DNA of 64,000 bases from Clostridia bacterium. GTDB taxonomy: Bacteria; Bacillota; Clostridia; Christensenellales; Borkfalkiaceae. Below, piece by piece: positions 22,622 to 62,004 of the stretch (its first letter is position 1; each line of letters starts with the position of its first letter). Made by a program: the position numbers and the translations under genes. The notes under the pieces were generated by a model. It did no database searches. It worked only from the letters and a program-made list of their open reading frames with translations, and had not been told where the DNA came from. The DNA lies in the NCBI GenBank assembly GCA_017407325.1, contig JAFQWV010000027.1:31623-95622 (forward strand), in the 5' to 3' direction.

Positions 22622-23422
22622 TTATAGAAAAAATGCACCAATTATTATTTCTGCGTCATCGCAAAGTTTATTCGTGCTTTTATTAAACCCTAAAACCGCG
22701 TCAAAAACGCGAGTCGTTCCGTTTATTGAAATCGTCACGCTGTCAATATCGTATAAAGCAAGGTCACCTATACCGCTAGCCGTCGTTATCGGCATAAATC
22801 TTGACGCGCTTTTTCCGTTAAACAATTTATCAATCACCTCGCTTTCGCAAACGAGAACGGGAAGATTCGTTTTTGCATCAACTAAAGTGTTTCCACTGTC
22901 GACAAAAGCCGTAAATTTTTTGCGTATTCCATTAACTTCAAGCGTTATTTCGCACTCGAAATTTTTGTTTAGTTTATTAATTTTAGAAAGAGTAACCTTT
23001 TTTATTATCTTATAGCATAAAAACGCGACTAAAAAATTTATACCGACGGGAAGTACGCCTGCATTTTTGACACCTTCAGTTGAATAGTCAATACCTAATA
23101 AACTTAAAACGCCTATTATCGTACCGCCTACTGCAAAAGTTAACAGAATAAAAACGTTTAAAAATTTCAGATAGTTAAAAACGGTCTTATGCTCGCACGA
23201 AATTAAAGTTATAAGCATTGCAAGTATAATTTTTATTAAAAAAGATATACCGTCGTTAAGATTAAACATCGGAACTATCACCGCAATTATAGTTCCTACG
23301 ATTGCACCGAGCGAAAGTCTAAAAAACGTGGAGCGCGTTTTGGTAAGTTTCGCCGTTCCCTTTAAAAGAAGGTAGTCCATTATTAAATTATCAATAATAG
23401 CATATTCAAGATAAACTTCCAT
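22622..23422 (-). CDS. spoIIGA: sigma-E processing peptidase SpoIIGA
   Basis: 266 aa. N-terminal membrane domain starts MEVYLEYAIIDNLIMDYLLL. C-terminal aspartic protease motif is VDSGNTLVD. Lies directly upstream of sigE. Confidence 0.88.
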   Translation of the reverse strand: MEVYLEYAIIDNLIMDYLLLKGTAKLTKTRSTFFRLSLGAIVGTIIAVIVPMFNLNDGISFLIKIILAMLITLISCEHKTVFNYLKFLNVFILLTFAVGGTIIGVLSLLGIDYSTEGVKNAGVLPVGINFLVAFLCYKIIKKVTLSKINKLNKNFECEITLEVNGIRKKFTAFVDSGNTLVDAKTNLPVLVCESEVIDKLFNGKSASRFMPITTASGIGDLALYDIDSVTISINGTTRVFDAVLGFNKSTNKLCDDAEIIIGAFFL

Positions 23423-23502: not shown

Positions 23503-23550
23503 AAAAAACCGCGCTATACGGCGAAAATCGCCCTATAGCGCGGTTTTTTA
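23503..23550. terminator. bidirectional terminator-like hairpin
   Basis: AAAAAACCGCGCTATA ... TATAGCGCGGTTTTTT with a nested CGGCGAaaaTCGCC hairpin. Confidence 0.7.
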
Positions 23551-23585
23551 TAGTTTTATATAAAATGCTATTTCTTTCTCTATTA

Positions 23586-23752
23586 GTGAAGTTTTCGCTA
23601 GCGAAAATGAAGTTGTGCTATGCACAGTGAAGTTGCTCACTTTTCTCGCAGTGAAGTTAAGTTTGCCAATAACTTCGCCGTTAGGCGAAACTTCACTCAC
23701 AAAGTGAACTTCACTATCGAAGATAACTTCACTTGCCCAAAGGGCAAACTTA
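23586..23752. repeat. quasi-palindromic word-plus-hairpin array (GTGAAGTT x4, then AACTTCAC x3-4)
   Basis: Words are at 23586, 23607, 23627 and 23651 (forward) and at 23689, 23707 and 23725 (reverse complement). Different small hairpins lie between them: TTCGCtaGCGAA, GTGCtatGCAC, CGCCgttaGGCG, TCACaaaGTGA, TATCgaaGATA, TTGCCCaaaGGGCAA. Confidence 0.85.
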
Positions 23753-23809
23753 GTTTTAGCGTGAACACTCCGTTAAGAGTATTCACGCTAATTGCCGAGC
23801 GTTTTTTAA

Positions 23810-25381
23810 TTAAAATTCTAAAAGTTTTAAATATTCGTTTTTGTCAACAGCAGCAAGGAACAAGTATAATCTTGGACCTTGATCGCTACCGATTAATAAG
23901 TTATAGAACACTTTGAAGAACTTTTGTTGACGAGCCATATTTTCTTTCTTCGTCAAGTTTACGTCGTTTATAATCGTGTATAAATAACTTTGGATATCTT
24001 TATCAGTAAAACCTTCGGTGTTTTTAACGTATTCGTAAAGGTTTTTAACCGCAAGCTTTTCTTCTTCGTCGCAAGCGTCGTAAAACTCTTGATTTTTATT
24101 TTCTAAAAGTTTATACATCTTTGACGGTTGGTGATTCGTAATCCAATTCTTAACGCGCGCAAGTCTTGATTCGTCAGCCTTGTCAAACTCAATGCCGATT
24201 TTACCAAGTAAAGCTTTAACTGCATCAGGTTTAAAATCAACTACCGTTGCAATACTTGCTAAAACGCCGAACGGAACTTTTGACTTAGTCTTGTCGCCGT
24301 CAATTAAACTAAATTCGTAAACCGTTTGATTAAACTCGTCACTAGTGCCGTTTTTAACTGCCTCTAAGCCCTTATCAAACTCGCTATAATGGCGAATAAT
24401 AGTGTCGTCAAAATTGAACGCAAACGGTGCTTTAGGCTCGTATTTAGCAAAGAGCCATCTAATCATATCAGGCTCGTACACCTTTAAAAGTGTAGCAGGC
24501 GTAATGTTGTTACCTGTAGAACTGTGCATATCGCCAAGTCCAGCAATAGAAAGCCAGCCGTAACCTTGGAAAAGCGGTGGTTCAACCCCTAAAACGTTTT
24601 TAGCGATATCGCTTGCTACGACGTAGCTACCGCTTGATGCGGCGTGGTCAATACCACCCGGTTCAAAGTCAACCCCTTCAACGCCCCAACGCATTGGCCA
24701 GTCAACCTTCCAAACGAGTTTAATAAGATTATATTCGCGAATTTTAACCGTCTTAGTTTGACCACACTTTTTACATCTGAAAGTAATTTCTTCGCAGTCG
24801 TCAGAAACGGATAAAACCTCGGTAAAGTCTTTCATTTCGCAGTCGCAGTAAACGTTTAACGGATAGTAATTATCTCTGTCGTCTTCCGTCGCGTCCTGAG
24901 TTTTATAACTCATTAAAATGTCGTAAATTTCTTTACGCTTTTTGAGTGCGAAAATTATGCCGTCAGCGTATCTTCCCGAAGTGTATTCCTTTGCTTGATA
25001 TCTATAATCTGCACTAATACCAAGTTCTTTTAAAGAATTTTCAAATTCCTTTTCGTTGTATTCGGCATACGTAGAGTATACACCGTACGGATCTGGAATA
25101 TAAGCGTAAGGCATACCGATATATTTTTCAAAATCAGGACAAATTTTTACAATGTTTGACGGCGCTTTTCTAAGTCTGTCAAACTCGTCCCACGAAAATA
25201 ATAATTTTGCTTTTTTACCCATTTTTTCAAGAGCCTTGCAAACGTAGAAACTCGTTGCAACGTCTCTGAAATTTCCGATGTGCACAGATCCACTCGGACT
25301 AATACCAGCGGCACAAACGTACACGTCTTTATTAGGTTTTCTTGCTATAAGTTCTTCAGCAATTTTCTCTGCCCAATGCAT
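23810..25381 (-). CDS. lysK: class I lysine--tRNA ligase
   Basis: 523 aa. N-terminus MHWAEKIAEEL...AAGISPSGSVHIGNFRD (HIGN) and overall layout resemble archaeal/spirochaetal-type LysRS. The KMSKS-equivalent loop reads GDMHSSTG. Confidence 0.82.
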   Translation of the reverse strand: MHWAEKIAEELIARKPNKDVYVCAAGISPSGSVHIGNFRDVATSFYVCKALEKMGKKAKLLFSWDEFDRLRKAPSNIVKICPDFEKYIGMPYAYIPDPYGVYSTYAEYNEKEFENSLKELGISADYRYQAKEYTSGRYADGIIFALKKRKEIYDILMSYKTQDATEDDRDNYYPLNVYCDCEMKDFTEVLSVSDDCEEITFRCKKCGQTKTVKIREYNLIKLVWKVDWPMRWGVEGVDFEPGGIDHAASSGSYVVASDIAKNVLGVEPPLFQGYGWLSIAGLGDMHSSTGNNITPATLLKVYEPDMIRWLFAKYEPKAPFAFNFDDTIIRHYSEFDKGLEAVKNGTSDEFNQTVYEFSLIDGDKTKSKVPFGVLASIATVVDFKPDAVKALLGKIGIEFDKADESRLARVKNWITNHQPSKMYKLLENKNQEFYDACDEEEKLAVKNLYEYVKNTEGFTDKDIQSYLYTIINDVNLTKKENMARQQKFFKVFYNLLIGSDQGPRLYLFLAAVDKNEYLKLLEF

Positions 25382-60632: not shown

Positions 60633-60727
60633 ATAAATTGCAAAATAAATTTTGCATAAATTGACGGCGTTTGCCGTCATAAATTGACCGCTAACTGCGT
60701 TCATAAATTGCAACCCAAGTTGCATTA
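60633..60727 (-). repeat. word-plus-hairpin array, word CAATTTAT (reverse orientation, 4 units)
   Basis: The plus strand reads ATAAATTG GCAAAATaaATTTTGC ATAAATTG GACGGCgtttGCCGTC ATAAATTG GACCGCtaactGCGTTC ATAAATTG GCAACccaaGTTGC. As written, the terminal G of each word and the first G of the next hairpin are the same base. Confidence 0.85.
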
Positions 60728-60765
60728 TGGTTATTTTTTCATTGCGAGCGTTACTTCTATTTATT

Positions 60766-60948
60766 CCTACCCCGTCATTGCGAGCGCGATTTATCGCGCG
60801 TGGCAATCTCTAAAGAACTAACCGAGCACTTTTAACGCCGAACACTAAAACAACCCACACGCACTTTATAGATTCTTACGCTTTCGCTCAGAATGACACT
60901 AATGAGTGTTGTAAAATAATTAGACGGCGTTTAAAAAAAACGCACGAC
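60766..60948 (+). repeat. 184-bp structured/MITE-like element, copy 1
   Basis: Starts CCTACCCCGTCATTGCGAGCGCGATTTATCGCGCGTGGCAATCTCTAAAG and ends AGACGGCGTTTAAAAAAAACGCACGAC. Contains internal long-range inverted repeats. Confidence 0.85.
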
Positions 60949-60954
60949 AATAAT

Positions 60955-61078
60955 GCAAATCGTGATTTGCAATTTATGAAAGTTTTAACTTTCAATTTAT
61001 GCGCCTAAAGCGCAATTTATGAACTTTGCAAAAGTTCAATTTATCGCAGTTTTTGCGAATAAAATTCGCAAAAACTGC
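60955..61078 (+). repeat. word-plus-hairpin array, word AATTTATG(A) (5 hairpins)
   Basis: GCAAATCgtGATTTGC, GAAAGTTttAACTTTC, GCGCctaaaGCGC, GAACTTTgcaAAAGTTC and a 15-bp stem GCAGTTTTTGCGAATaaaATTCGCAAAAACTGC. Words are at 60971, 60994, 61014 and 61038. Confidence 0.88.
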
Positions 61079-61169
61079 CCTATAACGCGATTATTGCACC
61101 ATTTTTTCCCCCTAGCCTTTCCCTTGAGGGGAAGGTGTCGCCCCGCGACGGATGAGGTGTAAGATTGTT

Positions 61170-61310
61170 AATGATGTGCAAAATAAATTTTGCATGATGC
61201 GCTAACTTGTCAGTTAGCATGAAGCGCAATCCTACTTTTTGCGCACGGATTACATGATGTGTAAGTATGCAAGCAACTTACATTGTGGTCGTGAACGCTA
61301 GCACGTTCCG
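61170..61310 (+). repeat. word-plus-hairpin array, word CATGATG/CATGAAG
   Basis: TGCAAAATaaATTTTGCA (same hairpin as at 60639-60656), GCTAACttgtcaGTTAGC, GCGCAA..TTGCGC, TGTAAGT..ACTTACA and GAACGctagcaCGTTC. Confidence 0.8.
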
Positions 61311-61390
61311 TGAATAACATATATTTTAATTTCGGACTGAAATTATTATATAAATCGTTTTTTGTCATTGCAGCGCGATTTTTATTTACT

Positions 61391-61574
61391 CCTACCCCGT
61401 CATTGCGAGCGCGATTTATCGCGCGTGGCAATCTCTAAAGAACTAACCGAGCACTTTTAACACCCGAACACTAAAATAACCCACAACGCACTTTAGAGAT
61501 TCTTACGCTTTCGCTCAGAATGACAATATTCAGTATTATAAAATAATTAGACGGCGTTTAAAAAAACGCACGAC
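61391..61574 (+). repeat. 184-bp structured/MITE-like element, copy 2
   Basis: Near-identical to 60766-60948 and 61707-61890. Confidence 0.88.
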
Positions 61575-61580
61575 CACAAT

Positions 61581-61672
61581 GCAAATCTGAGATTTGCAAA
61601 TCATGAAAGCCTGCTTTCAAATCACGAACGGCTTGCCGTTCAAATCATGAAGGCTCAGCCTTCAAATCATCC
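61581..61672 (+). repeat. word-plus-hairpin array, word AAATCATGA (4 units)
   Basis: GCAAATCtgaGATTTGC, GAAAGCctGCTTTC, GAACGGCttGCCGTTC and GAAGGCtcaGCCTTC. Words are at 61598, 61619, 61642 and 61664. Confidence 0.88.
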
Positions 61673-61706
61673 TCTAAGGCAACATATCGAGCGCGATTTT
61701 TTTACT

Positions 61707-61890
61707 CCTACCCCGTCATTGCGAGCGCGATTTATCGCGCGTGGCAATCTCTAAAGAACTAACCGCGCACTTTTAACACCCGAACGTAAAAACAACCCAC
61801 AACGCACTTTAGAGATTCTTACGCTACCGCTCAGAATGACAGTATTCAGTATTATAAAATAATTAGACGGCGTTTAAAAAAACGCACGAC
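61707..61890 (+). repeat. 184-bp structured/MITE-like element, copy 3
   Basis: Near-identical to copies 1 and 2. The word CATATCGAG is present both before it (61683-61691) and after it. Confidence 0.88.
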
Positions 61891-61896
61891 CTTTAT

Positions 61897-62004
61897 GAAA
61901 GTTAAAAACTTGCTATCGAGCAACCGTTAGGTTGCATATCGAGTTGCTCCAGCAACATATCGAGCGCGAACAAAGTTCGCGCATATCGAGTAGCCTTTAA
62001 GCTG
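61897..62004 (+). repeat. word-plus-hairpin array, word CATATCGAG (4-5 units)
   Basis: AAGTTaaaAACTT, CAACCgttaGGTTG, TTGCtccaGCAA, CGCGAACaaaGTTCGCG and TAGCctttaaGCTG. Words are at 61912, 61935, 61956 and 61982. Confidence 0.88.

Follow-up and report, generated by a model that had tools for sequence, protein, structure and literature searches.

A copy of a dispersed, strain-variable foldback repeat with Gut-1-type arms between lysK and spoIIGA of an uncultured Christensenellaceae genome

The repeat array described here occupies the spacer between lysK and spoIIGA, at 23586-23752 of the window, by which is meant the whole 64,000-nucleotide stretch that was analysed. The host genome (G000) is an uncultured Christensenellaceae MAG of 1.59 Mb and 95% completeness. 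The array's neighbours encode SpoIIGA, a sigma factor, and a class I lysyl-tRNA synthetase (LysRS), all on the minus strand; the sense strand of the element is also the minus strand, the same direction as lysK. The features of the locus are collected in Table 1.

Table 1. Features of the lysK-spoIIGA spacer and its flanking genes, in window coordinates
Feature	Position	Strand	Basis
Element copy: 3'-truncated, gene-less, Gut-1-type two-armed word-and-hairpin repeat	about 23563-23792	-	Alignment to copies in genomes G001, G003, and G075
Hairpin H, conserved 5' module, TTAGCGTG...CACGCTAA	23756-23791	-	Inverted repeat, 15-nt arms, 93% complementarity
Sense arm: CTAAGTT (degenerate, 23747-23753) and three GTGAAGTT	23673-23753	-	Gut-1 match and direct/inverted repeats
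Sense-arm GTGAAGTT words, read on the minus strand (plus-strand numbering)	23725-23732, 23707-23714, 23689-23696	-	Direct repeat
Sense-arm mini-hairpins, one after each word	23733-23747, 23715-23724, 23697-23706, 23673-23688	-	Inverted repeats
Centre: GGCAAACTTA, a possible pairing partner of TAAGTTTGCC (23743-23752) that would close the sense arm	23658-23672	-	Inverted repeat of 10 nt, 100% complementary
Antisense arm, AACTTCAC-type words (three GTGAAGTT and one ATGAAGTT on the plus strand)	23586-23658	-	Repeats and Gut-1 match on the plus strand
Antisense-arm mini-hairpins	23592-23607, 23614-23626, 23635-23650 (weak)	-	Inverted repeats
Tail: 5' half of the element's terminator stem, TAATAGAGAAAGAAATAGCATTTT (family TAACAGAAAAAGAGAGGACATTT)	23555-23585	-	Alignment; 3' half absent
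Bidirectional intrinsic terminator T2, host sequence outside the repeat	23503-23549	both	22-nt arms, 95% complementarity
Remnant of the old lysK terminator: A-tract and left arm cgctcggca, right arm gone	23793-23807	-	Intact hairpin in alleles X and Y
lysK, class I lysyl-tRNA synthetase, upstream gene	23810-25381	-	PF01921, E 6e-104
spoIIGA, downstream gene, parted from the element by T2	22622-23422	-	PF03419, E 5e-38

On the plus strand, the octamer GTGAAGTT was found in exact form at 23586, 23627, and 23651, with ATGAAGTT at 23607; the original prediction had counted four such words in the left half, which is correct for three of them and holds for the fourth at seven of its eight letters. 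For the right half, three to four copies of the reverse complement had been claimed, and three exact AACTTCAC words are indeed present (23689, 23707, and 23725 on the plus strand, at a spacing of exactly 18 nt), together with degenerate AACTT(C/A) copies at 23671 and 23747. Across the array as a whole, the words follow one another at uneven distances of 18-24 bp. The window contains 12 copies of the octamer versus 2.95 expected, a count reached by none of 100 shuffles, and 6 of the 12 copies fall in a stretch of 147 nt. Every interval between words forms a different perfect mini-hairpin; these hairpins and the central pair AAGTTtgccaatAACTT/CGCCgttaGGCG, both described beforehand, were all recovered. 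The strong bidirectional terminator reported near the array (T2) was likewise found, with a 22-bp stem, and was flagged on both strands by a terminator scan.

A long hairpin just past the lysK stop codon, previously listed beside the array as another feature, is real (15 bp) but not separate: because it aligns within the copies of other genomes, it is the 5' end of the element (hairpin H), and it is kept with compensatory changes in 11 copies. The ORF at 23620-23916 (+) had been read as a translation of the repeat; it has no Pfam match and is a read-through of the repeat, as is the ORF at 23548-23700 (-), also without a Pfam match. When folding was compared with shuffled sequences, as had been proposed, z values of -5.0 (plus strand) and -5.8 (minus strand) were obtained, and none of 200 shuffles was equally stable.

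A further proposed check, a genome-wide search for other mirror-image arrays, overturned the idea of a structure unique to this spacer. An arm was defined as a 7-mer occurring three or more times without change, all intervening spacers folding into hairpins, and block-shuffled genomes served as the control. The host genome contained 126 such arms, compared with 0-2 in shuffled genomes; 112 lay outside long ORFs, and many of the arrays were convergent pairs. Their words are CTCGATATG, CATGATTTG, CAATTTATG, GTGAAAT, GTGAAGT, ATGAAAT, ATGAAGTC, and GCGATAT. The idea of five words per pentamer was not pressed, since four exact words are the commonest number per arm (86 of 126).

Within its own genome, the repeated part of the locus is confined to 23583-23754, and T2 was not found repeated along with the array elsewhere in that genome. 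A full copy is located on contig C24, one with a different arm on C26, and half copies elsewhere. Copies 83-88% identical to that of the window, aligning from 23792/23793 to 23563-23573, were found in two genomes of the same genus (G001 and G003) and in one of another genus (G075). From these, a full element could be read as opening with hairpin H, continuing with sense arm, centre, and antisense arm, and closing with an intrinsic terminator that belongs to it (AAAAAGAGAGGAC...GTTCTCTCTTT). About four identical words of 7-9 nt make up the sense arm, each with a different mini-hairpin behind it, and the antisense arm carries their complements. Complete terminators are present in other copies. 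The closing stem at the centre co-changes on both sides in the ATGATGTT subfamily (CGATGTTTGCC/GGCAAACATC).

Several further observations concern the company that the arms keep. More than 100 additional arms carry CTCGATATG, CATGATTTG, CAATTTATG, ATGAAAT, or GCGATAT (e.g. C2:18241-18498, C8:33134-33394, C13:12614-12777, and 60633-62004 of the window), many of them as convergent pairs with a longer centre. One-armed GTGAAAT arrays sit in a mosaic of other short modules (C4:15600-16000 and ~60 other places), such as ccttcaccttgaggggaaggtgtcgcaaagcgacggatgaggtgt and a tandem module of ~48 nt, which also occur alone at many sites. Behind the element terminator, many copies carry a conserved extra module of ~100 nt (..GGTTTGGGCTTAGCCC..TTGACTAGTCAAATGCGATGCTTGCAC..ATTCTCCGCTAAG..), seen at L152, L157, L164, L168, L169, L171, and L174 of G001 and G075. 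This module (M2) is absent from the host genome and from the loci of Avd-like genes described below and is therefore not part of the core element.

Comparison with Rfam showed that one arm of the repeat is the Gut-1 motif (RF01706). The minus-strand match spans 23685-23756 (45.7 bits, E 5e-8), the plus-strand match 23563-23638 (31.6 bits), and model positions 1-77 are aligned on both array halves. Both scores miss the Rfam gathering threshold of 50 bits because the linker word here is GUGAAGU, not GUGAAAU. Among 39 Gut-1 matches in the genome, 7 were over the threshold, at 51-64 bits (top 64.4). Gut-1 was rated a likely RNA and reported only from human-gut metagenomes, with no function given (Weinberg et al. 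2010, Genome Biol 11:R31, PMC2864571); its Rfam consensus, a hairpin-GUGAAAU unit repeated three times, is listed as Gene/sRNA. One other paper was found, which uses it as a benchmark, and neither of the two gives an account of a two-armed form, of mobility, or of a gene link. The arrays share with Gut-1 three to four variable hairpins parted by a conserved GUGAAAU-type linker, and their occurrence in human-gut Clostridia. They differ in that the word of the window copy is GUGAAGUU, and in that the published model is a single 77-nt arm, whereas the unit here comprises two inverted arms and H (with a terminator in full copies), exists in many copies that vary among strains, and occupies putative 3' UTRs.

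The strain-variable nature of the repeat is evident at the locus itself. Three spacer alleles were found on metagenome contigs encoding identical LysRS or SpoIIGA protein. Allele W matches the window without a difference. Allele X (L136/L137) has an intact lysK terminator, 356 unrelated nt, and the same T2, whereas allele Y (L021), also present in a sister genome with flanks about 95% identical, has the intact terminator and 189 unrelated nt without T2. The array is thus absent from strains with identical flanking proteins, and T2 is common to an allele that has no element. In X and Y, the lysK terminator at the equivalent place reads cgctcggcag-aaaattt-ctgccgagcg; the 5' edge of the element, at 23792/23793, is the breakpoint versus both alleles and falls in the loop of this former terminator, the right arm of which is gone. 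Many contigs stop within the lysK-spoIIGA spacer, as expected for a repeat. Alleles X (L136 69-424) and Y (L021 5590-5778) also share a segment of ~75 nt, ggcgttttaaggggtgcggggagaatcagccacttg.cgcgtttttgtttctttttgctacaaaaagaaa, in opposite orientations, and allele X contains a promoter-like TTGACT-17-TATAAT site with a short hairpin and T-run behind it, possibly marking a small transcript.

Two further copies in the host genome gave a similar picture. At the orthologous sites, the sister genome has plain terminators of 27-46 nt, and at both of these empty sites the element with its own terminator replaces the resident one, with no duplication and no remnant. Three sites filled in the host genome therefore differ in sister strains or species; the family is both multi-copy and present or absent between close relatives at the same site, as in MITE-like elements. 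In G075, several copies have one arm of a divided terminator on either side, which is suggestive but ambiguous. A possible 9-bp duplication at L174, CCCGCCTTA, overlaps the consensus of the element end and is ambiguous too, and no clear terminal inverted repeat or target duplication was seen in the copies examined.

The sense-strand RNA of the element has a predicted MFE of -87.9 kcal/mol, versus -66.8 kcal/mol with pairs limited to 32 nt, such that word-on-word pairing of the arms is predicted to add about 21 kcal/mol. An RNAalifold consensus of 11 copies from four genomes contained H, the local hairpins, and three nested word-word helices. In these copies, the word-word helices were 98% paired, with compensatory changes at 4 pairs (slid controls at most 51%), and the local hairpins 95.8% paired, with compensatory changes at 7 pairs (slid controls at most 45%). 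Three G075 copies are the source of the compensatory changes in the word helices: at every word of either arm, and in the closing stem as well, they have ATGATGTT/AACATCAT in place of GTGAAGTT/AACTTCAC; this concerted switch would fit a ladder of paired words. The ladder-like fold originally proposed, with left words pairing to right words and mini-hairpins protruding, is thus plausible on MFE and covariation, but as a predicted property of the family and not of the lysK locus. One-armed arrays keep identical words without a partner arm, so pairing between arms cannot be the sole reason for the words, and something besides pairing, e.g. a trans factor or a copying process, must keep them constant.

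The stems are about 97% Watson-Crick. Counts of G-T versus A-C mismatches were 9:4 in arm 1 and 13:17 in arm 2, mostly at the word flanks; with so few non-Watson-Crick pairs and no clear excess of G-T over A-C, RNA is not favoured over DNA, and this asymmetry was dropped as a means of calling the folding strand.

With regard to transcription, 26 of 36 Gut-1 matches in the host genome lie downstream of a co-oriented ORF, often 0-80 nt past the stop codon, and among 14 copies for which H and the terminator give a direction, 12 follow a co-oriented ORF. A promoter scan near the window copy gave no promoter-like site on the strand of the element. Gene order and consensus scans together suggest that lysK transcripts would continue across H and both arms, sense before antisense, and likely end at T2 in the window strain, so that the array would form a structured lysK 3' UTR of ~300 nt with its arms folding back word on word.

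Taken together, the array is one copy of a dispersed, strain-variable foldback repeat, one arm of which is the Gut-1 motif of Rfam. The most likely explanation for about 23563-23792 of the minus strand is a gene-less, 3'-truncated copy of this repeat carried in the lysK 3' UTR as a relic of selfish spread, with words that are putative sites for a trans factor. Copies of the family lie at the 3' ends of co-oriented genes, in place of or inside the resident terminator, and the window copy would have at most a side effect on the stability or termination of the lysK mRNA 3' end.

Four other explanations were weighed against this one. A module of benefit to the host, acting in the 3' UTR as a mobile terminator or a stabilizer of mRNA 3' ends, is unlikely as the account of the element, although it is compatible with the relic of selfish spread. 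REP/BIME elements in Escherichia coli have been proposed to protect or terminate upstream transcripts in this way. Full copies do bring their own intrinsic terminator and occupy the sites of resident ones, their orientation is biased with the upstream gene, and the predicted structure is very stable. However, sister strains that have only a plain 30-nt terminator at these sites do well, the terminator belonging to the window copy has been lost, and a role of this kind leaves the identical words and the mirror arm unexplained.

A stand-alone small RNA gene with its own promoter, the role first put forward for Gut-1, is a further explanation; single-stranded words repeated between hairpins resemble protein-titrating RNAs such as CsrB/RsmZ. 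Such a trans-acting or protein-sponging sRNA would agree with hairpins kept by compensatory changes and folding z values of -5 to -6, and with the Gene/sRNA class of Rfam and the "likely RNA" rating of Weinberg et al. It was nevertheless judged quite improbable: the strand of the element lacks a promoter-like site, copies begin 0-80 nt past the stop codons of co-oriented genes, G-U pairs are few, the 1.6-Mb genome contains 126 arms with about eight different words, and the element is absent from strains with identical neighbour genes.

An array bound by protein as double-stranded DNA (iterons, a partition site, or an operator of the spoIIGA-sigE sporulation promoter), or a cruciform at the DNA level, is very improbable. 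Direct and inverted repeats of one octamer, stems that are nearly pure Watson-Crick, and a position upstream of the promoter of the Avd-like gene in some relatives would suit it; against it are the irregular word spacing, spacers kept as hairpins that duplex binding does not need, the strong terminator between the array and the spoIIGA promoter, the same array at unrelated loci, and its absence from strains with identical spoIIGA. Least tenable of all is a REP/BIME/REPIN-type element moved by a RAYT (IS200/IS605-like Y1) transposase, for although a short palindromic unit in inverted pairs, intergenic, multi-copy, and at gene 3' ends resembles one, profile searches of the 95%-complete host genome gave no match to Y1 (PF01797) or TnpB (PF07282), the conserved part is the linker word and not the palindrome, and there is no GTAG-type tag.

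Counting against the selfish repeat favoured here, no transposase was found that would move the element. The genes flanked by two inverted family-A arrays on C20 encode solely domain-less proteins, with no transposase, and the phage collection contained no match to the element. Of 63 pattern matches in viral contigs, true two-armed copies were seen only in L206 (IMGVR_UViG_3300029305_011416), which has two two-armed GTGAAGTT elements about 4 kb apart; the others look like other tandem repeats.

The best lead to a partner of the words is a gene of the S23p/Avd-like family (PF05635), a candidate on the basis of gene adjacency. The host genome has three PF05635 genes. Immediately upstream of every one of them is a convergent array of words and hairpins, each array using its own word (GTGAAAT, GATGAAGTC, and TATGTAAT). 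Upstream arrays were scored as at least two sense and at least two antisense copies of an exact 7-mer within 420 nt. By this measure, 22 of 28 PF05635 genes in 23 genomes of the genus have an upstream mirror array, 21 of them convergent, compared with a background of 6% of all genes in the host genome. An array before every PF05635 gene was not the rule: six of the 28 in the genus lack one, and in a class-wide sample only 8-10 of 30 such genes have it. In the protein tree, PF05635 genes that share a word group together, a pattern that common descent alone would also give.

Arrays with the GTGAAGT word of the window precede PF05635 genes in G095, G189, G299, and one metagenome contig; all four have the order of the window type (CTAAGTT..GGCAA GTGAAGTT ... 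GGCAAACTTA ACTTCAC ...). In relatives, both arms are upstream of the PF05635 gene, and the junction varies: the last word abuts the ribosome-binding site, or a promoter lies between. Most word classes of the host genome have no cognate PF05635 gene there. As none was found for the GTGAAGT word in this genome, the window copy is probably an orphan.

Some of these gene-bearing loci have features of their own. Units of array and Avd-like gene often follow directly after tRNA genes, or an apparent tmRNA 3' end, and the terminators of these (L125, L111, L112, L109, L122, L129, and L395); integrative elements typically insert at such positions. Counted from the MAESK start, which was also used for the protein tree, the Avd-like proteins linked to GTGAAAT in L104 (contig C17 of the host genome) and L125 (C10 of G003) show 100% identity; the flanks in the two genomes are only about 93-95% identical. 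The L104 copy is at a contig end, behind two tandem arrays. On the metagenome contig L359, the Avd-like gene comes after a plain tandem repeat, GTGAAGT tatgagagttgaga, of at least six units without hairpins, i.e. the same word in a different grammar. Among solved structures, the nearest to the array-linked protein is 2RLD, which is uncharacterised and whose entry contains five chains.

PF05635 has been tied both to Avd (PMC10053308) and to an ORF carried by the selfish intervening sequences (IVS) of 23S rRNA (PMC4990558). The gene beside complete arrays shares its fold family with the Avd of diversity-generating retroelements (DGRs) (PMC10053308); the repeat is not a DGR, as the profile search found no reverse transcriptase (PF00078) in the host genome. 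The resemblance to the IVS of Coxiella and Leptospira lies in a selfish appearance, self-complementary ends, a place in the loop of a host RNA hairpin, and the same four-helix-bundle family, the ORF of the IVS having long been suspected of a role in mobility (PMC4990558). IVS, however, sit in rRNA helices, carry their ORF between inverted repeats, and are cut out by RNase III, whereas the arrays here have both arms upstream of the gene, arms made of words and hairpins, and terminators as targets. The window copy, between lysK and spoIIGA and without a Pfam-matching ORF, is accordingly not an S23p-bearing IVS.

A broader likeness is to REP/BIME/REPIN, BOX, RUP, and Correia-type MITEs, which are also short, structured, multi-copy, intergenic, often in inverted pairs, at gene 3' ends, modular, and strain-variable. 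For the arrays, no RAYT or other transposase was found in the host genome, and no clear terminal repeats or target duplication were seen; their conserved part is a single-stranded linker word, the palindromes differing from unit to unit.

The words of the repeat may be recognition sites for a trans factor, for which the PF05635 four-helix-bundle protein would be the best candidate. A more specific proposal, which we put forward tentatively and hold to be possible but not probable, is that the arrays are the specific nucleic-acid partner of an S23p/Avd-like subfamily. Array and gene would then form an undescribed selfish module that has terminator hairpins as its landing sites and is related to the S23p-bearing IVS, with the word as a recognition code and gene-less copies as orphans.

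Taken alone, the window copy is an ordinary member of its family, and its effect is probably little more than a longer lysK 3' UTR. The family, on the other hand, takes up a noticeable part of the DNA between genes in gut Clostridia with small genomes; it disrupts metagenome assemblies, with several contigs ending in the lysK-spoIIGA spacer, and swaps transcription terminators between strains. It carries a word specific to each array that changes in concert across both arms, and it is tied by adjacency to S23p/Avd-like proteins, the role of which outside DGRs has been open since the 1990s. If true, the partnership of array and protein would be the first function for the orphan Gut-1 motif and for PF05635 outside DGRs.
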